From an uncultured bacterium (GTDB lineage Bacteria > Hydrothermota > UBA3073 > NMUJ01), in assembly GCA_965612795.1 (NCBI GenBank), contig CBFDTI010000012.1:1-22605 (forward strand): DNA of 22,605 nucleotides, written 5' to 3'. A program made the translations under genes and the position numbers. Below are positions 7,664 through 20,044 of this stretch, piece by piece (the first letter of the stretch is position 1; each line of letters begins with the position of its first letter). A model generated the notes under the pieces. It ran no database searches, was not told where the DNA came from, and saw only the letters and a program-made list of their open reading frames with translations.

Positions 7664-7698
7664 CTAAAGGGTTGGATAGGGGCCGTAAAGGAGGTAAG

Positions 7699-10056
7699 AT
7701 GAAGCGATTTTTGTACATAGTAGAGGGTTTAGCATTTGTGTTAACATTTTATGTACTAGTCAGCGGTTACGAAGGCGGTTGTATAACCACCAGCGTATGT
7801 CCCGATTATGGTTACAAGCTCGCTTCAGAACATCAAATACTGGCAAAATACAGGGATAGGATCTTAAATAACCGTAATTTGAATAGAGATAAGGCTCTTC
7901 CCGTTGATCCCAAAGACGGTGGCTGTATTTCAGGACGGGTGTTAGGTGAGGGTGTCCCATTGGAGGGAGTATGGGTTGATATCTTCGATACACGTTTCTA
8001 TTATGTAGGTAGCGGCTATACAGACAGCTTGGGTTATTACATAGTCTGTGGTCTATCAGATACCATCGCTTATAAAGCAAAAACCTGGAACAATCTCGGC
8101 TATATTGACAAGTGGTGGGATAACAAGCCCAACTTCTGGTCCGCCGACACTATAGTAGTGGTTGAAGGAGACACCACCACAGATATCAATTTCAACCTAC
8201 CGCTTGGGGGCTACATTTCGGGTAGGGTAACCGCCGAAGGTAAAAACGGTATCCCAGGTGTATGGGTTGATGTTTGGGACCCAGATTGGAACTATGTATC
8301 CTCCGGCTACACTGATAGCTTGGGATTTTATGTTGCCGGCAACATGGAAGAGGGTGTCCCCTACAGGGTGAGCACATGGAACGATCAGAACTATGTTGAT
8401 GAATGGTGGGACGATAAACCTGACATCGTATACGCCGACACTATAATGGTGGTGGCTGGTGATACACTCGAAAACATCGATTTCTCTTTAACAATAGGTA
8501 GCGCAATATCAGGTACCGTGACCGGTCCAGACAAGCAACCCCTTGAGGGCATCATGGTCCAGGCCAGGTCTGTCGTTAACGGCGGTTTCGTCAAAACCGA
8601 TTGGAATGGAACCGATTCCCTCGGTCACTACGTAATCACAGGGCTACCGATTGCTTACGGGTTCGTAAGTGGCTACCGGGTACGTGTTGTTGGATCGAGC
8701 CCGTACGCCCATCAGTGGTATAACGGTAAGTATAGTTTTACCACTGCGGATGTGGTCGACGTAACCCAACCCGGTGATACAGTCACAGGTATCGATTTTC
8801 AACTCGAACTCGGCGGTATCGTCAAAGGTGTGGTAACTGATGAAAACATGGATTCACTTCCAGGGATAGGTATCTACGTTTATGATAACACTTCCAACAG
8901 CCCCTTGGAGCCCGTAGCTTTCACGTTTACGGGATGGTGGCCTGTGATGGGTGGCTACGAGCTCGCCTTGCTACCCGGTACCTATAGGATACGCACCTTT
9001 AATAGAGGAGGCTATATCGACGAATACTATGATGATCAAATAAGTTGGGATGACGCCACCTTAGTTACGGTCAACGTTTCCGAAACCACCTACGTGAACT
9101 TCTCACTCAGTACAGGTGCCACAATCGAAGGCACCGTGTATAGAATGACGCAGAAGGATGGTATGGTTCCATTCCCACGGGTGGCCATAGTGGCTCTACG
9201 TGCCAATACAGGTGAGCTAGTAACCTTTGTCAACTCGTTTCTTGACGGAACTTATAAATTACGTGGGTTACCTACTGGATGGTACAAATTATATGCTTTC
9301 CCATCAGGTGATATGTTTTATCCGACATGGACTAACGTTATGCATGCACCCGAATTCTACAACGACAAGCTTAGCTGGGCTACCGCCGATTCGATATACG
9401 TTAGTGCACCAGATTCGATGATCACCGGGATAGATTTCGTACTTGGTACCGGTGGTGCTGTTGCTGGTAGAGTATCCGACTATCCTAAAGCACCCATCGA
9501 AGGGGCTCAAGTTACAGCTTTCGCATACAGTACCCCACATTATGGCTGGATACCTATACAAGCGCCAGCAGTTACAGATGCAGCCGGCGATTATGTAATA
9601 CCGGGTCTCAGCACCGGTGAGTACAAGGTACGTGCAGAGGCTGAGGGGTATCCAACCAAGTGGTGGGACAATAGGTCAGACTCGAGCAATGCCGACCTTG
9701 TATCAGTAGCTGCACCTGACACAACGGAAGGTATCAATTTCTATCTCTTATTGGGTATAGAAGAAGCTGATCGTGCCCTCACTTACGAACTCTATCAGAA
9801 CCAACCGAACCCATTCACACACAAAACCTACATACAGTATTCCATAGCCGGTAAGAAGCATATCTCGTTGAAGATTTACGACATAACAGGTAGGTTGGTT
9901 AAGACGTTAGTGGATGGCATACAAAAACCCGGCTATTATACGGTAGAGTGGGATGGCACAGACGCCGAAGGTAAGAAACTATCTGTGGGTATCTATTTCT
10001 ATCGACTTGATGCAGGTAACTTCCGTGCAATAAAGAAGCTCATCTTGGTACACTGA
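7699..10056 (+). CDS. Secreted protein with six carboxypeptidase-regulatory-like beta-sandwich repeats and a C-terminal FlgD-Ig/T9SS-type domain
   Basis: SD AAGGAGG precedes ATG 7699, followed by signal peptide MKRFLYIV... Six ~100-aa repeats follow the pattern G.ISGRV...TDSLG.Y...EWWD.K....AD.I.V...I.F.L (about 7918-9753). The C-terminus has QNQPNPF..IYDITGRLV..WDG..G..GIYFYRL. Confidence 0.85.
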   Translation: MKRFLYIVEGLAFVLTFYVLVSGYEGGCITTSVCPDYGYKLASEHQILAKYRDRILNNRNLNRDKALPVDPKDGGCISGRVLGEGVPLEGVWVDIFDTRFYYVGSGYTDSLGYYIVCGLSDTIAYKAKTWNNLGYIDKWWDNKPNFWSADTIVVVEGDTTTDINFNLPLGGYISGRVTAEGKNGIPGVWVDVWDPDWNYVSSGYTDSLGFYVAGNMEEGVPYRVSTWNDQNYVDEWWDDKPDIVYADTIMVVAGDTLENIDFSLTIGSAISGTVTGPDKQPLEGIMVQARSVVNGGFVKTDWNGTDSLGHYVITGLPIAYGFVSGYRVRVVGSSPYAHQWYNGKYSFTTADVVDVTQPGDTVTGIDFQLELGGIVKGVVTDENMDSLPGIGIYVYDNTSNSPLEPVAFTFTGWWPVMGGYELALLPGTYRIRTFNRGGYIDEYYDDQISWDDATLVTVNVSETTYVNFSLSTGATIEGTVYRMTQKDGMVPFPRVAIVALRANTGELVTFVNSFLDGTYKLRGLPTGWYKLYAFPSGDMFYPTWTNVMHAPEFYNDKLSWATADSIYVSAPDSMITGIDFVLGTGGAVAGRVSDYPKAPIEGAQVTAFAYSTPHYGWIPIQAPAVTDAAGDYVIPGLSTGEYKVRAEAEGYPTKWWDNRSDSSNADLVSVAAPDTTEGINFYLLLGIEEADRALTYELYQNQPNPFTHKTYIQYSIAGKKHISLKIYDITGRLVKTLVDGIQKPGYYTVEWDGTDAEGKKLSVGIYFYRLDAGNFRAIKKLILVH

Positions 10057-10160: not shown

Positions 10161-11219
10161 ATGGGCAAATGTCGTGTATGTGGCAAGTCTTCTCTTTACA
10201 TATCAGATGGGTTAGGTATCTGCCTCGATTGTATACGTGATAGGTGGGAAGAAGTCAAACCCTTAGTCAAGGCGGTACACCGACGTGTGAGGAAGAAGTT
10301 CAACCTACCCGCAGAGGTACCACGTGCCGGTCAGCACCCCTGTACCGAATGTGGTAACGAATGTAAGATAGAGACTATCGGTTATTGTGGGTTGAAATAC
10401 GTCGAATCAGGTAAATTAAAGAAACGCGATGGGCTTCTCGAATGGTACTACGATCCGCTACCCACCAACTGTGTAGCCGCATTCGCCTGTGCCGCTACGG
10501 GATGTGGTTACCCCAAGTACTCACGTACAAATGGTGTTGAGTATGGGTACAAAAATCTTGCTATCTTTTACACTGCATGTTCGTTTAACTGTTTATTCTG
10601 CCAAAACTGGCACTTCCGTGTATGTAACCCACGACCAACCACACCAGAGGAGCTGGCCCAAAAGGTGGACCCCCGTACCGCATGTATCTGTTATTTTGGT
10701 GGCGATCCGGGTCCCCAGTTCATACATTCCATAAAGACGTCAGAGCTTGCCATCAAGCGTGGTACAAGGGTCTGTTGGGAGACCAACGGCAACCTCAACC
10801 CGTCTTTACTTGGACAGGCGTTTGAGCTCGCACTCGAATCTGGTGGTACGATTAAGTTTGATCTCAAAGCATACGATGAGAGGGTTGCACTCACGCTGTG
10901 TGGTGTATCCAACCGCCGTACGCTGGATAACTTCAAACGTGTGGGTGAGAGGTTTAACGAACGTCCAGTACCGCCGCCAGTAGTTGCAAGCACATTATTA
11001 GTACCTGGTTATATCGACGAACATGAAGTCGAACAGATAGCCAAATTTATCGCGGGTATCGACCCACGCATACCGTACTCGTTGCTCGCATTCTATCCAC
11101 AGTTCCAGATGAACGACCTACCCACAACACCACGTGAGTTAGCCCTACGTGCATATGAAGTGGCCAAATCGGTTGGGCTCGTAAACGTACACATCGGAAA
11201 TATACACCTACTTTGGTAG
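10161..11219 (+). CDS. Radical SAM protein (PflA/COG1180-like) with Cys-rich N-terminus
   Basis: CSFNCLFCQNW (CxxxCxxC), YFGGDP, WETNG, KFDLKA and STLLVPGY. Confidence 0.9.
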   Translation: MGKCRVCGKSSLYISDGLGICLDCIRDRWEEVKPLVKAVHRRVRKKFNLPAEVPRAGQHPCTECGNECKIETIGYCGLKYVESGKLKKRDGLLEWYYDPLPTNCVAAFACAATGCGYPKYSRTNGVEYGYKNLAIFYTACSFNCLFCQNWHFRVCNPRPTTPEELAQKVDPRTACICYFGGDPGPQFIHSIKTSELAIKRGTRVCWETNGNLNPSLLGQAFELALESGGTIKFDLKAYDERVALTLCGVSNRRTLDNFKRVGERFNERPVPPPVVASTLLVPGYIDEHEVEQIAKFIAGIDPRIPYSLLAFYPQFQMNDLPTTPRELALRAYEVAKSVGLVNVHIGNIHLLW

Positions 11220-11258
11220 TTCTTGATAATCACAGCTAACGAAATATTTTAAATCCTA

Positions 11259-12560
11259 ATGCCAGAGATAACCACATTGAAGGGGATGCACGACTTCCTG
11301 CCCACCGATATGTACGTACGACGTTACGTTATCGATAAGATACGCAATGTTTTCGAAAAATACGGGTATGAACCACTTGAAACACCCGCACTCGAGTACT
11401 ATGATGTACTGAGTGCCAAATACGGTGAGGAGGAACGCCTTATATATAGATTTCAGGATTATGGTGGTAGAGAGGTGGGGTTGAGGTTTGATCTCACTGT
11501 ACCACTTGCGAGGGTGCTCGCTTCACATAATGAGCTACCGTTACCATTTCGACGCTACCAGATACAACCCGTATGGCGTGCTGAGAAACCGCAAAAGGGT
11601 AGGTTCCGCGAGTTCTACCAGTGTGATGTTGATCTTGTAGGTATCAAGTCGATGGCTGCAGATGCTGAGATAATAGCTATCATCTACGATACACTTAAGA
11701 CGTTGGGGTTTGATAAATTCACCATCCGCATAAATAATCGCAAAATCCTGCAAACAATAGCGGAGAGGCTAAATCTACCCGCTGATAAATATTTACCGTT
11801 CTTCAGGGCTATCGATAAACTTGATAAAAAGGGATGGCCCGGCGTTGTAGATGAGCTCATGAGGTTAGGGCTCACCCACAGCAGTATCGAAGAACTTAAG
11901 GGGTTGCTCAAATTACGTGACGTACCTACGAAGATAATATCAACCCTACGTAGGGTGTTGGGTGATATAGAAGGGCTATCGGAAATGGAGTCACTCTTCC
12001 AGTATCTTGATGCATACGGGATACCTACAGAGTATACAGTGTTCGATGTAGCCCTGGCAAGGGGGCTCGATTATTACACCGGGCCTATACACGAGACAGC
12101 GGTGGATGCACCCAAAATCGGTAGCATCACAGGTGGTGGTCGTTACGATAGGTTGTTGGAGATATTCACTGGTAAACCCATACCAGCAGTGGGTACAACG
12201 TTGGGACTCGAACGTATCATAATCGTAATGAAGGAGACCGGCATGATACCTGCATCCGCTATACCAACGAGGGTACTTATGACAATCTTCGATACCACAA
12301 CCTACAAGAAAACGGTCGAGCTTGCACAGCGATTACGTGCGATTGGGGTTAATGTTGCCCTATACCCGGAGTTTGTCAAACTCAGGAAGCAACTCAAATA
12401 CGCAGATAAGGCGAATATACCATGGGTCATAGTCATGGGACCCGACGAGTTAGCTGAGGGTACCTTCCTATTACGTGATATGAAGTCAGGTAACCAATAC
12501 AAGATAAAGTTGACCGATTACCACAAGGTCAAGGAGTACATAGATGGGGTTTTGGGCTGA
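11259..12560 (+). CDS. hisS: Histidine--tRNA ligase
   Basis: KGMHDFLP, LRFDLTVP, WRAEKPQKGRFREFYQCD, RGLDYYTG, GGGRYD, GLERI and an anticodon-binding domain. Confidence 0.97.
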   Translation: MPEITTLKGMHDFLPTDMYVRRYVIDKIRNVFEKYGYEPLETPALEYYDVLSAKYGEEERLIYRFQDYGGREVGLRFDLTVPLARVLASHNELPLPFRRYQIQPVWRAEKPQKGRFREFYQCDVDLVGIKSMAADAEIIAIIYDTLKTLGFDKFTIRINNRKILQTIAERLNLPADKYLPFFRAIDKLDKKGWPGVVDELMRLGLTHSSIEELKGLLKLRDVPTKIISTLRRVLGDIEGLSEMESLFQYLDAYGIPTEYTVFDVALARGLDYYTGPIHETAVDAPKIGSITGGGRYDRLLEIFTGKPIPAVGTTLGLERIIIVMKETGMIPASAIPTRVLMTIFDTTTYKKTVELAQRLRAIGVNVALYPEFVKLRKQLKYADKANIPWVIVMGPDELAEGTFLLRDMKSGNQYKIKLTDYHKVKEYIDGVLG

Positions 12561-13767
12561 TCTTCACGTACATTCGAAATATTCGCGTGCTACGAGCCAA
12601 AACATGGACCCCGCAGGGATTGCGAAGATTGCCAAACTGAAAGGGCTCAAACTCATGGGTACGGGCGATTTCACCCATCCTCTCTATCTGAAGGAACTGA
12701 AACAGTTACTCGAGCCCACCGGTACAGGGTTGTTCGTTTATAACGATGTGTATTTCATGTTAACAACCGAGGTAAGCAATATTTACGAGAAACACGGTCG
12801 TACCTATAAAATACATAACATTATTCTGGCACCCGATTTCCAACACGTAGAGGTTATCAATCGCTACCTCAGCAAGTATGGGGCACTCGAATCCGACGGC
12901 CGTCCTATTTTGGGGCTTGACCCCGAGCTCATGGTACGTGAGTTAAAGAAAATCTCACCCCAGATCGAGGTAATACCAGCACATATATGGACACCATGGT
13001 TTTCGCTGTTTGGTGCCAATAGCGGGGTGAACAAAATCGAAGACGCATTCGGCGATATGACCGAACACATACTGGCACTCGAGACTGGGTTATCGTCGGA
13101 TCCATGGATGAACTGGCATTGGAGTGCACTCGACCGCTGGGCACTTGTGTCGAATTCGGATGCACATTCGCCACTAAATATTGGTAGGGAGGCTAACTAC
13201 TTTGAGACCAAACTCGATTACTTTGATATCATCGACGCCATCCGTACGCAGGACCGTAAGCGGTTCGGTTATACGATAGAGTTCTTCCCAGAAGAGGGTA
13301 AATACCATTACGATGGACATCGCAAGTGTGGTGTGAGGTTACATCCACGTGAGGCGATGTTCAACGACAACATTTGCCCCGTGTGTGGTAAACCCTTAAC
13401 GATAGGTGTGTTACATCGTGTGTATATGTTAGGTGATCGCACAGATGATGAGCTACCTAAGGATAGGATACCGTTTTATCACGTTATACCGTTGCGTGAG
13501 ATAATAGCGGATGTAGTCCATATGGGTAAAGATTCACATACGGTGGAGGACCGCTATATGAGGTTGGTGCGTGAACTTGGTACTGAGATGGAGATATTGT
13601 TGAACCTCAACATAGATGATATAAAAGCTATCGATCCGGAGGTTGGCACCGCTATCGATAAGATGCGACGTGGTGAGGTGAAGGTAGAACCCGGTTACGA
13701 TGGTGTGTATGGGGTGATAAAGATAGAAACAGAGCCACCGGAATCACCTCAGCTATCTTTGTTTTAG
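12544..13767 (+). CDS. Endonuclease Q family protein (PHP domain plus Zn ribbon)
   Basis: DLHVHSKYS, GTGDFTHP, PAHIWTPW, ETGLSSD, SNSDAHS, GKYH...HRKC..CPVCG and PGYDGVYG. Confidence 0.9.
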   Translation: MGFWADLHVHSKYSRATSQNMDPAGIAKIAKLKGLKLMGTGDFTHPLYLKELKQLLEPTGTGLFVYNDVYFMLTTEVSNIYEKHGRTYKIHNIILAPDFQHVEVINRYLSKYGALESDGRPILGLDPELMVRELKKISPQIEVIPAHIWTPWFSLFGANSGVNKIEDAFGDMTEHILALETGLSSDPWMNWHWSALDRWALVSNSDAHSPLNIGREANYFETKLDYFDIIDAIRTQDRKRFGYTIEFFPEEGKYHYDGHRKCGVRLHPREAMFNDNICPVCGKPLTIGVLHRVYMLGDRTDDELPKDRIPFYHVIPLREIIADVVHMGKDSHTVEDRYMRLVRELGTEMEILLNLNIDDIKAIDPEVGTAIDKMRRGEVKVEPGYDGVYGVIKIETEPPESPQLSLF

Positions 13768-13781
13768 TGAATGGAGGTATT

Positions 13782-14981
13782 ATGAAAATATTGACACTTT
13801 TTTGTGGTAACTTTGGCATCGAATACAATCTGTTCGATTTTACGGATAAGCGACTTATAAACTTAATAACCGGTATCATAACAGATATAGGGTCGAGGAC
13901 CGCCGATAACCGTTACGAATGTAAGGGCATGTCTAAGCACGACATACGTGAGGTGTCCAACGTGATTGCGGCACTTAAGTGGATAAACGATACATTGGTT
14001 AAGGAGGGCTTCATAACGACACCTGATGATATAGATGCCGTAGTACATAGGGTGATACATGGGTTGACGAAATACAGGAAAGAATTGGTGAAAGTAACAC
14101 CTGAGGTTATCGATGATGTGTTGGAGTTTGCCGATTTCGCTCCCGAACATAACCCCTATAATGCTGAGGGTATGAAAGCAGCGCTTATAGTTTATCCACA
14201 TGCGGAACAGTTTGCATTTTTTGACACCGCACCGTTTGTTGACTTACCAGCAAAGGCGTACATGTATGGGTTGCCGTATCAGTTCTATACCCAATACCAC
14301 ATACGGAGGTATGGGTTTCATGGGATATCACACTTATGTGCAATCAGCGAAGCATGTAAACTGATAGGTAAATCCATGCAACGTATGAAGATAATCAGCC
14401 TGTACGTGGGACGTGGTGTCTCAATGGCAGCATTCGATAAGGGGAAAGCTATCGATACCTCCATGGGGTTTTCGCCACTCGAGGGCCTCATAATGAAGAT
14501 GCGTTCAGGTAATGTAGATCCACAGATCCTGTTGTATCTTGCATCACGTGAGGGGCTATCACTCATTGAGATAGGTAGCATACTGAACAAGAGTAGCGGA
14601 TTATTGGGGCTCATCGGTACGACCGACATCGGGCATGCATACGAGGAGGCTACCCGTGGTAACGAACAGGCAAGGGTGGGGCTCGACACGTTTGTATACC
14701 AGATACAGAAGTACTTTGGTGCGTATTATGTGGCGTTGAAAGGTGTTGACTTGCTTGTGTTTATTGCACGTGATGAAGATGTGGTACCACAGCTGTGGAT
14801 AGATATTGTGAAAGGTCTGGAATTCATGGGTGCCGCTATAGATGAAACCAAAGCACATGCCACTGTACGTGAGGAGCCCACTATATTGAGTACTGACAAG
14901 TCTAGGTTCGCAATCGTATATGTACCAAGGCATGAAGAACGCTGTATGGCTAAGAGGGTGGCGGAGTTACTCCAAAGATGA
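13782..14981 (+). CDS. Acetate kinase paralog with degenerate ATP/Mg-binding motifs (probable pseudokinase)
   Basis: Full length and colinear with AckA (HRVIHG, APEHNP, FDT, RRYGFHG.SH, DTSMGFSPLEGL, RSG..DP, SGLLG). SD GGAGG precedes ATG 13782. Several catalytic motifs are altered. Confidence 0.85.
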   Translation: MKILTLFCGNFGIEYNLFDFTDKRLINLITGIITDIGSRTADNRYECKGMSKHDIREVSNVIAALKWINDTLVKEGFITTPDDIDAVVHRVIHGLTKYRKELVKVTPEVIDDVLEFADFAPEHNPYNAEGMKAALIVYPHAEQFAFFDTAPFVDLPAKAYMYGLPYQFYTQYHIRRYGFHGISHLCAISEACKLIGKSMQRMKIISLYVGRGVSMAAFDKGKAIDTSMGFSPLEGLIMKMRSGNVDPQILLYLASREGLSLIEIGSILNKSSGLLGLIGTTDIGHAYEEATRGNEQARVGLDTFVYQIQKYFGAYYVALKGVDLLVFIARDEDVVPQLWIDIVKGLEFMGAAIDETKAHATVREEPTILSTDKSRFAIVYVPRHEERCMAKRVAELLQR

Positions 14982-16186
14982 AGATATTGGTACTGAATTG
15001 TGGTAGCTCATCCATAAAGTATCGGTTATTCGATGACGATACAACAATCGCAAGAGGTGTGGTCGAGAAGATAGGTGAGGAGGTATCGTTATTCTCACAT
15101 CACTCCGAGGGTGTGGAGATCAAGAAACAGCCGATAAAAATACCTGACCATACCAGAGGTATCGAACTTGTGCTCAACACGCTCGTGGATAAGGGTGTCA
15201 TCCACGACTATGGTGAGATAGATGCGATAGGGCATCGTGTTGTACATGGGGGTGAGGAGTTCAAATCCTCGGTACTTATAGATGATAGGGTGATGCGTAC
15301 CCTCTATGCGTGTGTACCGTTTGCACCTTTACATAATCCACACAACATCAAGGGTATAGAGAGCTGTAAGCAGATATTGCCGAACGTACCACAGGTGGCA
15401 GTATTCGATACTGCATTCCATCAAACTATGGGGCCAGTAGCTTTCCTGTATGCGATACCATATCATTACTATGAAAGGTATGGGTTGAGAAGGTACGGGT
15501 TTCATGGTACATCACATTATTATGTATCAAACAGGGCTGCTGAGCTTATGGGGCAACCTATGAGCGAACTTAAGATGATAACTGCACATTTAGGTAACGG
15601 TTGCAGTGTGGCGGCAATCAAATCCGGTAAGGTGGTCGATACATCGATGGGGTTTACGCCGTTGGAGGGGCTCGTCATGGGTACAAGGAGCGGTGATATC
15701 GATCCAGCAATCGTTACATTCCTCATACGTAAGGAGAGGTTGTCACCGGACGAGGTCGATTCCATACTTAACAAGCGGAGTGGGTTGTTGGGTATTTCAG
15801 GTATATCCAACGATATGCGGCAACTCATAGATGCAAGCAACAAGGGTAACGAGCGTGCAAGGTTGGCGATCGATATATTCGCCTATAGGGTGAAAAAGTA
15901 TATATCCGCATATGCGGGTGTGTTGGGTGGGGTTGATGCAATAGTATTTACCGCAGGTATAGGTGAGAATGCACCTCTTGTGAGGAAGAAAATACTGGAG
16001 GGGTTGGAATTCATGGGTATACAGCTGGACGATGAGCTTAATGAATGTATGGTGGGTGGTAGGGAGGGGGTCATATCGAAACCTGATGCAAAGGTGAAGC
16101 TGTTTGTGATACCCACAAACGAGGAACTAGTCATCGCACGTGAAACCCGCAAGATAGTCGAACAGCTGCAGGGGGTGAAGCCATGA
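14978..16186 (+). CDS. ackA: Acetate kinase
   Basis: All canonical motifs are present: LNCGSSSIK, GHRVVHGG, APLHNP, FDTAFH, HLGNG, GTRSG, DMR, FTAGIGEN and PTNEE. Confidence 0.97.
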   Translation: MKILVLNCGSSSIKYRLFDDDTTIARGVVEKIGEEVSLFSHHSEGVEIKKQPIKIPDHTRGIELVLNTLVDKGVIHDYGEIDAIGHRVVHGGEEFKSSVLIDDRVMRTLYACVPFAPLHNPHNIKGIESCKQILPNVPQVAVFDTAFHQTMGPVAFLYAIPYHYYERYGLRRYGFHGTSHYYVSNRAAELMGQPMSELKMITAHLGNGCSVAAIKSGKVVDTSMGFTPLEGLVMGTRSGDIDPAIVTFLIRKERLSPDEVDSILNKRSGLLGISGISNDMRQLIDASNKGNERARLAIDIFAYRVKKYISAYAGVLGGVDAIVFTAGIGENAPLVRKKILEGLEFMGIQLDDELNECMVGGREGVISKPDAKVKLFVIPTNEELVIARETRKIVEQLQGVKP

Positions 16187-16857
16187 GTATTGCAAGGTTT
16201 ATTGACCAAACGTTACTCAAGCCTGACAGATCGGAAGCTGAGGTTATCGATTTCATCCGTCGCAGTAAAAAGTATCCGTTTGCAGCAATATTTGTGTTAC
16301 CGAGGTGGGTGACACTTGCGTGTGGGGAGCTCAAAGATACGAAGCTGAAGGTAGGTACGGTGGTAGGGTTCCCATTTGGTGCGAACAAGACTGAGGTTAA
16401 GGTTAAAGAGACACAGGTGGCGGTGGAGGATGGTGCGAAAGAGATCGATATGGTGATCGATATAGGGGGGCTCAAGTCAGGTGATTACGAGAGGGTGCTC
16501 ACCGATATTAAGGAGGTGGTGGCTGCTGCTGATGGTAGGTTGGTGAAGGTTATCATAGAGACAGCGTATCTTACTGAACGTGAGAAGATCAAGGCGTGTG
16601 AGCTCATAATTGAGGGCGGTGCACATTTTGTGAAAACATCCACCGGCTATGGGCCGGCAGGTGCTACAGTGGATGATGTGCGATTATTACGCCGGATAGT
16701 AGGTAATAGGGTGGGGGTGAAAGCCTCCGGTGGTATAAGGACTTACGCACAGGCGATGGATATGCTACGTGCGGGTGCGTCACGGATAGGTACATCAACC
16801 GGGATAGAGATTGTGGAGGAGGAGCATGCCAAATCTAAAGGAGATAATAGAGCGTAA
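16183..16857 (+). CDS. deoC: Deoxyribose-phosphate aldolase
   Basis: IDQTLLKP, VVGFPFG, EIDMV, KVIIET, FVKTSTG, VKASGGIRT and RIGTS. Confidence 0.96.
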   Translation: MSIARFIDQTLLKPDRSEAEVIDFIRRSKKYPFAAIFVLPRWVTLACGELKDTKLKVGTVVGFPFGANKTEVKVKETQVAVEDGAKEIDMVIDIGGLKSGDYERVLTDIKEVVAAADGRLVKVIIETAYLTEREKIKACELIIEGGAHFVKTSTGYGPAGATVDDVRLLRRIVGNRVGVKASGGIRTYAQAMDMLRAGASRIGTSTGIEIVEEEHAKSKGDNRA

Positions 16858-18067
16858 GAAGCGAGGCGAACCACTCACGGAGGATGAGATAGCGTACGTT
16901 GTACGAGGATATGTTAGTGGTGAGATACCAGATTATCAAGTGGCAGCATTGTTGATGGCAGTATACTTCAGGGGTATGGATGAACGCGAGACGTTTGTAC
17001 TCACATGTGAGTTCATCAAGTCAGGGGTTACGCTCGAGCTCGATGATATACCGGGGTTGAAGGTGGATAAACATTCCACCGGCGGGGTGGGTGATAAGGT
17101 ATCGCTGATAGTGGCACCATGGTTGGCAAGTATGGGGTTGGTGGTACCCATGATATCGGGTAGGGGGTTAGGCCATACCGGAGGGACGTTGGATAAGCTC
17201 GAATCCATACCGGGGGTGAGGACGGATTTCACGGTGGAGGAGTTCAAACAGCTATTGCGTGACCATCGTGTGGCAATAGTGGGGCAAACCGATGATATAG
17301 TGCCTGCGGATAGGAAGTTCTACGAGCTACGTGATATCACATCAACCGTGGATTCGCTACCGTTGATGGTTGCCAGCATAATGAGTAAAAAGTTGGTAGA
17401 GGATCTCGATGTGCTGGTGCTGGATGTAAAATGTGGTACGGGTGCGTTCATGAAGACACGTGATGCAGCTGAACAGCTGGCAAGCTTATTGGTTAAAGTA
17501 GGTCAATCCTATGGGGTGAAGACAGATGCGGTGATAACGAACATGGATGTACCATTGGGTAGATGTGTAGGTAATACGCTTGAGATGAAGGAAGCTATCG
17601 AATTTATGCGTGATGGTAAGATGGAGGAGGATCTAAAGCATGTGGTGATAACGATCATCGAAAGGGTGCTCGAGCTTGCGGGTATGGAGATGGATTACTG
17701 GCGGTACCTTGAGTCAGGTGCGGTATATGAGAAGTTTGTCGAACTTGTGGCTGCACAGGGTGGTGATACATCATACGTTGAGGATACGGGTAAGTTGAGG
17801 ACCGCAAACCATGTGGTGGAGCTCAAAGCATGGGAGACGGGTAACCTTCTAAGCATGGATACCGAACGTATAGGGTGGTTAGCTAACCACCTGGGGGCGG
17901 GTAGGTTCAAGAAAGGTGATAAGATCAACCATGCAGTAGGGTTTGTTTTCTGGCACAAAACTGGTGACATACACAGAGGCGATGTCATCGCCGAAATACA
18001 TGCAGATGACAGAGAGTTAGCTGAATGGGTGAGGGATGAGCTACGTAAAGCGATAAAGATTGGATGA
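16826..18067 (+). CDS. pdp: Pyrimidine-nucleoside/thymidine phosphorylase
   Basis: DKHSTGGVGDK, SGRGLGHTGGTLDKLESIPG, SIMSKK, DVKCGTGAFMK and LGAGR. SD GGAGGAG precedes ATG 16826. Confidence 0.95.
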   Translation: MPNLKEIIERKKRGEPLTEDEIAYVVRGYVSGEIPDYQVAALLMAVYFRGMDERETFVLTCEFIKSGVTLELDDIPGLKVDKHSTGGVGDKVSLIVAPWLASMGLVVPMISGRGLGHTGGTLDKLESIPGVRTDFTVEEFKQLLRDHRVAIVGQTDDIVPADRKFYELRDITSTVDSLPLMVASIMSKKLVEDLDVLVLDVKCGTGAFMKTRDAAEQLASLLVKVGQSYGVKTDAVITNMDVPLGRCVGNTLEMKEAIEFMRDGKMEEDLKHVVITIIERVLELAGMEMDYWRYLESGAVYEKFVELVAAQGGDTSYVEDTGKLRTANHVVELKAWETGNLLSMDTERIGWLANHLGAGRFKKGDKINHAVGFVFWHKTGDIHRGDVIAEIHADDRELAEWVRDELRKAIKIG

Positions 18068-18101
18068 AATAACCATTCCAGGGGAAAAGGTTTTGATTGG
18101 C

Positions 18102-18130
18102 TTGACGGAACTAAGATGTTTATCTATACT
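18102..18130 (+). promoter_or_regulatory. Sigma70-type promoter for the S41 peptidase gene
   Basis: TTGACG 18102-18107, 17-nt spacer, TATACT 18125-18130. Confidence 0.6.
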
Positions 18131-18208
18131 TGGTTGAAAAGAAAGACGAAATTGATATGATGATGTCGGAGACTGCATTCAATCCATGAGAGTGAAAAGG
18201 AGGAAGAA

Positions 18209-20044
18209 ATAATATTTGTAATAGTATTATTTGCAAGCTCGGTTTTGGAGGGACAGGTCTTTGCTACATTATCTCTAAAAGATGTAGAAGATATACAGGC
18301 GCTGATATCAAGTGGCTACGAGTTATTTGATAAAGGCTATGTTGATAGTGCATATAGATGCTTTGAGAAGATCATAAAAATGGATTCTACCATTGCAGCA
18401 GGATACTATCATACGGGTTGCTTATATGCAAAAGAAAGTAAGGATAGCGTAGCAATAACCTGGCTATGTCGTGCTCTGAAAAAGAAGATGTGCTTCGTAA
18501 CATATAGATGGGCACTATGCCTTGACCCAGATTGGAGAGAATTAAGGAAAAAATCGATATGGAAAAAGATTTACAATGCACTGGATATGAAAATCAAAAA
18601 TTTACTATCACTTGCTGATTCTGTAGGGATTTTCAAAAAAGATGTATATCTTGAGCTCGCAAGAATATATAGCGCAAGGAGGGATACAGGTAACACAATA
18701 AGATATTTGAAACTGGCACTTGAGCATGGACTGAGTAATCTAGCTGTTATAAGGGGAGATTATGATTTTGAACCAGTGAGTGATACATTGCAAAAAGTTG
18801 CAAAAAGTATAATCGAAGAAAGGCATAAATGGACTGGAACGGTTGAGCAGAAAATTTATGGATTAATGCTGGTACACTCTGCAATAAAGTATAATTGTGC
18901 TGCACTATGGTTGGCTGATTTCGATGATTGGGACAGTGAAGTACAAAGGTATATCCCACTCGTAGTAAAGGCAAAAACAAAATTGGAATATTATCGCATT
19001 CTCGAAAAATTAGTGGCAAGCATCAATGACGACCATACTCGGATAATATATCCATCTGATGTCTATAAAAAACTGGATAAACCTCCACTCAAAGTTATTA
19101 ACATAGAAGGTAAATTTTATATTGAGAAAGTACTTTCACCCGAATTGGTGAAAAGTGGTATAAAGCCTGGCATGGAAATAATCGAGATAAATGGTATCCC
19201 TGTTCACGAATATGCAAAAGATAGTGTCTATCTGTATATTCCTCAGAAACCAAAACACTCAGCAGATTGGGATTGTGCAAGGAGGTTGCTTACGGGCAAA
19301 AAAGGAACAGAGATAAGATTAGCATTACGAGATTGCAAAGGTAAAGTAAGTACTTTCAGAGTGAAGAGAAATGCTAAAGATATAGTAAAAGAAGAAGAGA
19401 AGCCATTAGTGGAGATGAAGAAATTTCCTGGCAATATTATTTACTTTAAAATTGGGGGATTTTGGGGTGATGTGGTGGATAAATTTTTGGAACATTTTAA
19501 GAAATTAAACCTGGATAAAGTAAAAGGGATGATAATTGATGTGCGTGAAAATCCAGGCGGAAACAGTGGTTTAGGTGATGAGATAATCTCTTACCTCATC
19601 GATAAGCCGGTGAGGAATTATGTAGGTATGTATTCGCCTGTTTACATTCCGCTGCGAAAAGCAAGAGCAAGCTACCCCAAAATAATGTTGAACTTGAGTA
19701 GTAAAGGTAGATTAATTTTCCCCGCAAAAGATAAAAGATATATAGGTCCACTCGTTATACTTACATCCCCGGGAACAGGTAGTGCAGCAGAAGATTTTGT
19801 CCGTCCATTTAAGGAATCCGGGCGCGCCACTATCATTGGTATGCCGACATCGGGTGGAACAGGCAACCCATTATATGTATACTTGCCAGGTGGAGGGATA
19901 CTGAGAGTTTGTGTGAATACAGAGCCATTTGTGGGCAAAGGAATAATGCCTGACATTTTGGTCTTCCCAACCCAGAAGGACATAGCAGAAGGCAAAGACA
20001 GAATACTTAATAAGGCACTTGAAATCCTTAGGCACAAAAATTAA
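18209..20044 (+). CDS. TPR-containing S41 family peptidase (PDZ plus catalytic domain); 5' end anomalous
   Basis: TPR helices at the N-terminus, NDDHT, a PDZ-like segment, IIDVRENPGGN, catalytic TGSAAEDF, IIG.PTSG and GI.PDI. An in-frame hydrophobic stretch IIFVIVLFASSVLEG starts at 18209, upstream of the TTG at 18245. Confidence 0.85.
   Translation: MIFVIVLFASSVLEGQVFATLSLKDVEDIQALISSGYELFDKGYVDSAYRCFEKIIKMDSTIAAGYYHTGCLYAKESKDSVAITWLCRALKKKMCFVTYRWALCLDPDWRELRKKSIWKKIYNALDMKIKNLLSLADSVGIFKKDVYLELARIYSARRDTGNTIRYLKLALEHGLSNLAVIRGDYDFEPVSDTLQKVAKSIIEERHKWTGTVEQKIYGLMLVHSAIKYNCAALWLADFDDWDSEVQRYIPLVVKAKTKLEYYRILEKLVASINDDHTRIIYPSDVYKKLDKPPLKVINIEGKFYIEKVLSPELVKSGIKPGMEIIEINGIPVHEYAKDSVYLYIPQKPKHSADWDCARRLLTGKKGTEIRLALRDCKGKVSTFRVKRNAKDIVKEEEKPLVEMKKFPGNIIYFKIGGFWGDVVDKFLEHFKKLNLDKVKGMIIDVRENPGGNSGLGDEIISYLIDKPVRNYVGMYSPVYIPLRKARASYPKIMLNLSSKGRLIFPAKDKRYIGPLVILTSPGTGSAAEDFVRPFKESGRATIIGMPTSGGTGNPLYVYLPGGGILRVCVNTEPFVGKGIMPDILVFPTQKDIAEGKDRILNKALEILRHKN

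Follow-up and report, generated by a model that had tools for sequence, protein, structure and literature searches.

What does a bacterium gain from a second acetate kinase gene whose product no longer carries the residues that contact the nucleotide? The question arises from a stretch of 22,605 nucleotides (contig CBFDTI010000012.1 of assembly GCA_965612795.1; the window) from an uncultured bacterium whose phylum we label WOR-3, after a 90%-cluster mate named ‘candidate division WOR-3 bacterium’. Two acetate kinase homologs lie there in tandem, a canonical AckA and, directly upstream of it, an AckA-family paralog that we call A'. Acetate kinase is a textbook enzyme and a proposed ancestral ASKHA kinase, and acetyl phosphate is a global signal and a donor of acetyl and phosphoryl groups. 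A' is a selectively maintained member of an old, rare, AckA-derived clade in which the nucleotide-contacting residues have been replaced. It is very probably functional and nucleotide-blind, and from its sequence we infer that it is not an ATP-dependent acetate kinase.

The initial annotation described two full-length ackA homologs that overlap by ATGA, and this is correct: both are open reading frames matched end to end by PF00871 (A' with 311.1 bits over residues 2-390, AckA with 534.4 bits; cut-off 22), and the overlap is where it was said to be. By TIGR00016, AckA scores 529 bits and A' passes narrowly (305.6 bits against a cut-off of 293.4). The two proteins are identical at 143 of 401 positions (36%, E 6e-92). 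We place the start of A' at ATG 13782 rather than at GTG 13767 because clade members all begin MK/MN-IL at the equivalent ATG. The window comes from genome G000 (1.42 Mb in size and 99.5% complete), in which these two are the only AckA genes, besides two butyrate-kinase-like partial matches. The PTA_PTB matches of G000 are low-scoring only (≤139 bits).

Residues are numbered here as in the M. thermophila enzyme, from a phmmer alignment to 1TUU. The motifs quoted initially are all present in the translation, the altered ones as LFCGNFGIEY, YVGRG, TTDIGH and FIARDEDV and the retained ones as HRVIHG, HNP, FDT, GFHGISH, RSG and HEER. Relative to canonical AckAs of known structure (M. thermophila 1G99/1TUY, T. 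maritima 2IIR), with which it shares family, fold and 33-39% identity, A' differs at N7, S10-S12, K14, N211, G239, R285, G331, I332, G333 and N335. In the M. thermophila study (PMC4390882), N7, S10, S11, S12 and K14 are the hallmark residues of the PHOSPHATE1 loop, which is suggested to contact the nucleotide phosphates; N211 contacts the beta-phosphate, a role is also given for G239, and G331 is described as completely conserved among acetate kinases, that of Entamoeba histolytica (EhACK) excepted. Single changes at N211, G239 or G331 lower the activity of that enzyme 6- to 200-fold, according to the same study, which also names V93, L122 and P232 as acetate determinants.

The claim that the acetate and phosphoryl side is kept holds only in part. 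Like the canonical enzymes, A' has R91, H123, D148, F179, H180, P232, R241 and E384, as well as E385. R91, D148, H180, R241 and E384 are catalytic or transition-state residues of the M. thermophila enzyme. The acetate pocket is only partly preserved, with P232 in place, V93 replaced by Ile and L122 by Glu. Both of the changed positions vary within the clade, and L122 is represented by E, V, R, K, T or L. A charge swap between positions 122 and 239 (E/K in the window and G031 copies, V/K in P0004, and R, K or T with E in Eisenbacteria) was considered; it concerns two independent lineages only and was not used.

The pattern is a property of the clade and not of one gene. We compared 26 clade rows with six canonical AckAs and counted on 23 core rows, with P0171 and P0191 set aside as very divergent members that have lost E384 as well. 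None of the 23 core rows has kept N7, S10, S11, S12, K14, N211, G239, G331 or N335; the clade-wide replacement also takes in I332 and G333, and R285 is replaced in most members. R91, H123, D148, F179, H180, P232 and R241 are retained in every core row, and E384 is retained save in P0004, which has Asp, and in the partial row L141, which lacks the C-terminus. Several of the new residues are themselves conserved: position 11 is aromatic in 22 of 23 rows (Ile in P0011), 12 is Gly or Asp, 14 is Glu or Asp, 211 is Arg in 20 of 23 (Lys in P0010, Tyr in P0011), 231 is Ser and 331 is bulky. N7 has become Asp in the Eisenbacteria type and Phe in the window copy.

In an IQ-TREE phylogeny of 57 rows (near-duplicates P0006, P0008, P0014, P0017, P0018 and P0087 removed), the 16 A'-type rows form one clade, separate from the 41 canonical and other rows, with an ultrafast bootstrap (UFboot) of 100 and a Shimodaira–Hasegawa-like approximate likelihood ratio (SH-aLRT) support of 99; a quick tree agrees. 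The window A' groups with that of G031 (99/89) and these two with P0004 (100/99), and the AckAs of the window and G031 group likewise (99/98), so that the two genes of the pair have been inherited together. A word-index search recovered proteins with the same kind of replacement at 97% (P0003), 49% (P0004) and about 40-44% identity (the group P0005-P0014, and P0016). Against a library of 1.84 billion representatives of 50% identity clusters, P0004 reached 659 bits with the clade profile and the next match, a canonical protein, 481 bits; we therefore consider the clade rare.

Other departures from the canonical sequence occur elsewhere in the family. The AckA-like metagenome proteins P0126, P0128, P0134, P0217, P0239, P0252 and P0271 lack the PHOSPHATE1 serines and lysine, and several of them retain the GIGEN form of the ADENOSINE motif. 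They lie outside the A' clade. Degenerate AckA paralogs thus seem to have arisen more than once. There are also long forms of 570-800 amino acids (P0135, P0138, P0140, P0160, P0175, P0205, P0207, P0208, P0210, P0212, P0228 and P0241), in which the AckA domain begins near residue 165-175 and is fused to an N-terminal, and often also a C-terminal, extension.

Of the 272 genomes from the window's phylum that were searched with profile A2, three carry A'-type genes, namely G000 and G001, which are congeners, and G031, which belongs to a different family. The best other match in the set (G134, 480 bits) is canonical. In all three carriers A' immediately precedes canonical ackA and shares the ATGA overlap with it, and the same order and overlap occur in the metagenome loci L154 and L155. 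The gene upstream of A' differs, being a TIGR00375-like PHP protein in the window and icd in G031. A scan of metagenome contigs with profile A5 gave 77 loci, of which three are A'-type (L154, L155 and L220). At 99.7% identity L154 can be assigned to the species of G031, and at 95.5% L155 to the genus of the window, so that the contig scan added no new independent lineage, and contigs of P0004 were not recovered in it. A genome contig scan with profile A2 identified L005 as the only A'-type locus among the 80 listed, judged by the scores of the A3 and A4 hidden Markov models. AckA-family genes in more than one copy also occur without A'-type features. WOR-3 genomes G053-G057 (family f19) have two canonical-scoring AckA matches each, on different contigs, and the one copy checked in each of G053, G055, G056 and G057 has canonical motifs. 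The Bacteroidales metagenome-assembled genomes L012 and L016 each have two canonical-type AckA-family open reading frames on one strand, separated by about 1 kb.

The remaining genome copies are in Eisenbacteria, where 10 of 18 genomes carry A', in 11 copies (two of them in G279), none with an internal stop. Canonical ackA was detected in seven of these ten genomes (E ≤ 1e-100), and G287 has a fragment. The gene order is PHP phosphoesterase, A', ECF-S-like membrane protein, TonB-dependent receptor. The same block without A' is found in all five genomes examined of the eight that lack the gene, and 17 of 18 genomes encode the membrane protein. The block is thus a phylum-level backbone, and we dropped the neighbors as a functional clue.

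Is A' kept by selection, or merely slow to disappear? The loss of particular motifs in an open frame had been read as a sign of retained function, and this reading is borne out. The ratio of nonsynonymous to synonymous substitution rates (dN/dS) between G000 and G001 is 0.056 for A' (55 nucleotide and 10 amino acid differences) and 0.080 for AckA (54 and 12), and the comparison of the window with L155 gives 0.147 (A') and 0.172 (AckA, from a partial gene). Six Eisenbacteria pairs of A' gave 0.04-0.27 in the five with usable dS; the L138-L132 pair is saturated. The initial annotation had proposed looking for tandem pairs under purifying selection, and the two occur together here, the tandem arrangement in all WOR-3 carriers. 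A' does evolve faster than AckA, given its higher dN against G031 (0.43, and 0.34 for AckA) and the longest branch in its subclade, yet it is clearly constrained. Degraded orthologs, which would have spoken for random loss, were not seen: no internal stop occurs in any of 14 genome copies of A', and none with a frameshift was observed. The 90% cluster of the window copy has 26 members, and the 15 listed each have 399 amino acids. Four public runs, drawn from three studies that sampled hydrothermal-vent and sediment DNA and, in one case, marine-sediment RNA, have contigs with substitutions in A' and no indel within it, the only indel listed being at 16170 in the AckA tail. We conclude that A' is not decaying, because its dN/dS is no higher than that of AckA, its replacements are common to a clade across two phyla, and its frames are open. 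The change at 16170 is a 1-nt deletion relative to the window in contigs of three of the four runs (X18, X19 and part of the X4 depth) that would alter the last residues of AckA; the AckA of G001 has 399 amino acids and that of the window 402.

Structural models agree with the assignment to the family. The AlphaFold2 model of A' (mean predicted local distance difference test score, pLDDT, 83.8; predicted template modeling score, pTM, 0.82) has the two-domain AckA fold, and Foldseek aligns it with T. maritima AckA (2iir_A) at a TM score of 0.90 and E 4.8e-40. The pLDDT of the monomer dips at 163-180 and 229-280; we read no meaning into this, and the segments largely coincide with the modeled dimer interface. 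A complex model of AckA with A' scored 0.91, with 0.01 for the best control, at least 97% of contacts agreeing between runs and a partner pLDDT of 92. In the benchmark, 116 of 157 solved complexes attained that mark, as did 2 of 215 mismatched pairs. Because AckA homodimers are solved structures, the pass points to an AckA-like dimer surface on A' and to nothing further. Identity between A' and AckA is 34 of 69 positions at the interface and 109 of 325 elsewhere, a difference that is confounded in part, because the interface includes the catalytic loops, and conservation within the clade is slightly higher at the interface (0.80, and 0.73 elsewhere). We looked for adaptation of the AckA dimer surface to A' as derived positions shared by the AckAs of the two tandem lineages; these number 1 of 70 at the interface and 4 of 332 elsewhere, with no signal either way.

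How might a nucleotide-blind A' work in WOR-3? A' and AckA would be made from one transcript and, through the ATGA overlap, in roughly matched amounts. A' would be a subunit that no longer sees the nucleotide and still binds acetyl phosphate or acetate, and by dimerizing with AckA as a ‘dead-paralog partner’ it could modulate the activity or the direction of AckA. We favor this mechanism for the WOR-3 copies and put it at somewhat less than an even chance. Its precedent lies in the prozymes, of which the trypanosomatid AdoMetDC and DHS partners are dead-paralog activators, both eukaryotic. By analogy with these, A' may be an impaired paralog held under selection beside an active sibling, which makes them a working model for the pair. 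The likeness has limits, as the AckA of the window looks self-sufficient, with all hallmark residues. Multiple and neighboring ackA genes are common. A closer bacterial comparison is the L. lactis pair AckA1 and AckA2, also neighboring homologs conserved within a lineage; according to PMC3956926, both retain the catalytic, substrate, nucleotide and metal sites save for one ATP-site residue (V331 in AckA1, I331 in AckA2), and a terminator separates their genes, which are transcribed independently and encode isozymes rather than subunits. In the pair described here, unlike that of L. lactis, one copy is without its nucleotide site and the genes overlap.

Several observations weigh against a dead-partner role, or against its extension to the whole clade. 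The heterodimer suggested initially gains from the conserved WOR-3 tandem and from the passing complex model; however, the modeled pass does not tell a heterodimer from an A' homodimer, and in Eisenbacteria A' never adjoins canonical ackA, the two being 45 kb apart on one contig in G278. No canonical AckA was detected in G274 and G279, two genomes of uncertain completeness that have high-scoring Pta and A'. The clade as a whole therefore needs no co-translated AckA, and should AckA truly be missing from G274 and G279, A' might take its place there. The 4-nt overlap is also less telling than it looks, as ackA and deoC share an ATGA too (16183-16186); it is the rule in this operon and does not single out the A'/ackA pair. 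D148 and E384 are near-invariant, which is more than a pure scaffold needs and fits residual catalysis. Finally, the window copy carries the extra changes H152F, H208Y and N383H and has an end branch of 0.89 (0.32 for the G031 copy), so that some relaxation may have occurred in the window lineage.

These points lead to the alternative that survives best, namely that A' is an autonomous enzyme that would keep the acyl-phosphate chemistry of AckA and use a non-nucleotide phosphoryl partner (phosphate or pyrophosphate, water, or another acceptor), and that in WOR-3 would be an operon-mate of AckA in the manner of a second isozyme. We regard this as possible but doubtful. R91, H123, D148, H180 and R241 persist throughout the core rows at 40-50% overall identity, E384 nearly so, and the replacements are not random, in that new residues are conserved at 11, 12, 14, 211 and 331 and Asp takes the place of N7 in the Eisenbacteria type. 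A' also stands alone in the ten Eisenbacteria genomes, and G274 and G279 combine it with Pta and no detected AckA. Weighing the other way, the PHOSPHATE1 serines and lysine are gone from a loop that is now acidic or aromatic, with Phe at position 7 in the window copy, and V93 and L122 vary so widely that no single acyl substrate is implied.

The obvious model for such an enzyme is EhACK (4H0O), which is pyrophosphate-dependent and, to our knowledge, the only described acetate kinase that does not use ATP. Like A', it has a bulky residue in place of ADENOSINE G331 and changes at N211 and G239, and the bulky 331 and Met 332 of the Eisenbacteria type recall its occluded adenosine pocket (Q323 and M324 in PMC5517563). 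That paper gives an extra Gly in PHOSPHATE2 and the ADENOSINE substitutions as the marks of EhACK and describes putative bacterial pyrophosphate-dependent kinases; we derived the target string D-Q-M..E from its E. coli-to-EhACK substitutions. A' has neither mark. Its PHOSPHATE2 loop matches that of canonical AckA in length and aligns with it ungapped, and so is without the second Gly of EhACK, and in place of D-Q-M..E (or an adjacent conserved Asp) the window copy reads A-R-D-E-D-V and the Eisenbacteria type A-F-M-A-E-G. PHOSPHATE1 is rebuilt in A' as well; the phmmer alignment with 4H0O begins at residue 84, and the N-terminus of EhACK is thus outside the comparison. EhACK is moreover the weakest acetate-kinase match to A' in the PDB (123 bits). 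The pyrophosphate donor offered initially, in the form known from EhACK, thus finds no counterpart in A'. A broader proposal, that the clade represents a new reaction type in the family, a nucleotide-free acyl-phosphate enzyme that may replace AckA in some Eisenbacteria (those with Pta and A' and no AckA detected) and run beside it in WOR-3, strikes us as rather unlikely.

Less probable again is a homodimeric sensor of acetyl phosphate, acetate or a related acyl compound, with a target other than AckA, or some other non-catalytic role. The retained ligand-site residues and dimer surface, together with the lost nucleotide site, would suit a sensor, and the differing contexts (ackA-deoC in WOR-3; PHP, ECF-S-like and TonB-receptor genes in Eisenbacteria) suggest a general rather than a pathway-specific role. 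However, no partner or output domain is visible in what is a plain single-domain AckA fold, and since the Eisenbacteria block exists without A' in every such genome examined, context says little on function.

We think it very unlikely that A' is an acetate or propionate kinase that uses nucleoside triphosphates through non-canonical binding. The source annotation is ‘acetate kinase’, TIGR00016 is passed, and single-site variants of the M. thermophila enzyme retain some activity, as reported in PMC4390882, but here at least 11 nucleotide-side positions, G331 included, are replaced together and the charge of K14 is reversed. That A' is a recently inactivated duplicate heading for loss has next to no credibility despite the long end branch of the window copy, being contradicted by the selection data (dN/dS no higher than in AckA), by a clade that spans two phyla with no stop-bearing copy, and by the few-hundred-base gap between the flanking genes in Eisenbacteria that lack A' (211 nt in L231; no remnant search was made).

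If A' is a pseudoenzyme, it would be the first in the AckA family and a bacterial ‘dead paralog’ partner; otherwise, it would bring a second non-ATP chemistry to the family. Either outcome bears on the control of acetyl phosphate. We found no description of an AckA paralog without nucleotide motifs in the literature searched, with subscription journals outside its scope, and a WOR-3 genomics paper mentions acetate kinase once and the A' gene not at all. Because sources name A' proteins ‘acetate kinase’, an activity that is absent may be credited to WOR-3 and Eisenbacteria in metabolic reconstructions. Both genes of the pair are small and soluble, which makes the role of A' directly testable.

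The pair sits in a run of closely packed genes on one strand from 10161 to 18067, within which a promoter and terminator scan, with counts at shuffle level, found no terminator-like site on the + strand. A contig from the RNA library covers 13550-16400; it shows presence only, and as DNA carry-over is possible it is a weak hint of a transcript. Coordinates are collected in the table.

Table 1. Features of the A'/ackA locus, in positions of the window; residue numbers are those of M. thermophila AckA.
Feature	Position	Strand	Remarks
TIGR00375-family (PHP-like) protein	12544..13767	+	14 nt upstream of A'; 193 bits, under the cut-off of 326.6
Shine-Dalgarno-like GGAGG	13773..13777	+	4 nt ahead of the A' ATG; read from sequence
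A', AckA-family paralog	13782..14981	+	399 aa; nucleotide-side motifs replaced; intact frame
Former PHOSPHATE1 loop, residues 6-15	13797..13826	+	LFCGNFGIEY for LNCGSSSIKY: N7>F, S10>N, S11>F, S12>G, K14>E
Former PHOSPHATE2 loop, residues 207-214	14400..14423	+	LYVGRGVS for AHLGNGCS: H208>Y, N211>R
LOOP3, residues 238-243	14493..14510	+	MKMRSG for MGTRSG: G239>K, R241 retained
LOOP4 region, residues 280-285	14619..14636	+	TTDIGH: R285 equivalent is G
Former ADENOSINE motif, residues 327-335	14760..14786	+	FIARDEDVV for FTAGIGENA: G331>R, I332>D, G333>E, N335>V
ATGA shared by A' stop and ackA start	14978..14981	+	Read from sequence
Canonical acetate kinase AckA	14978..16186	+	402 aa; every hallmark residue present
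Deoxyribose-phosphate aldolase deoC	16183..16857	+	TIGR00126, 264 bits; ATGA overlap with ackA
Pyrimidine-nucleoside phosphorylase	16811..18067	+	TIGR02644, 519 bits

The protein encoded upstream of A' (12544-13767, + strand) has 407 amino acids, a PHP-like N-terminus and a CxxC zinc-ribbon-like stretch, and gave no Pfam match at 1e-3. That a PHP-family gene of another type also lies upstream of A' in Eisenbacteria is probably a coincidence. Downstream, ackA, deoC and the phosphorylase gene (14978-18067, + strand) form a tight run, the last two overlapping by 47 nt, which suggests that this small genome couples the formation of acetate and ATP to the catabolism of nucleosides (deoxyribose). 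GC skew is +0.18 to +0.36 across 13000-19000, where the genes are all on the + strand, and about 0 to 0.1 upstream. At 7672-10056 (+ strand), a 794-amino-acid protein combines CarboxypepD_reg repeats with a C-terminal Por_Secre_tail sorting domain of the type IX secretion system (T9SS), which fits an organism of the FCB group.

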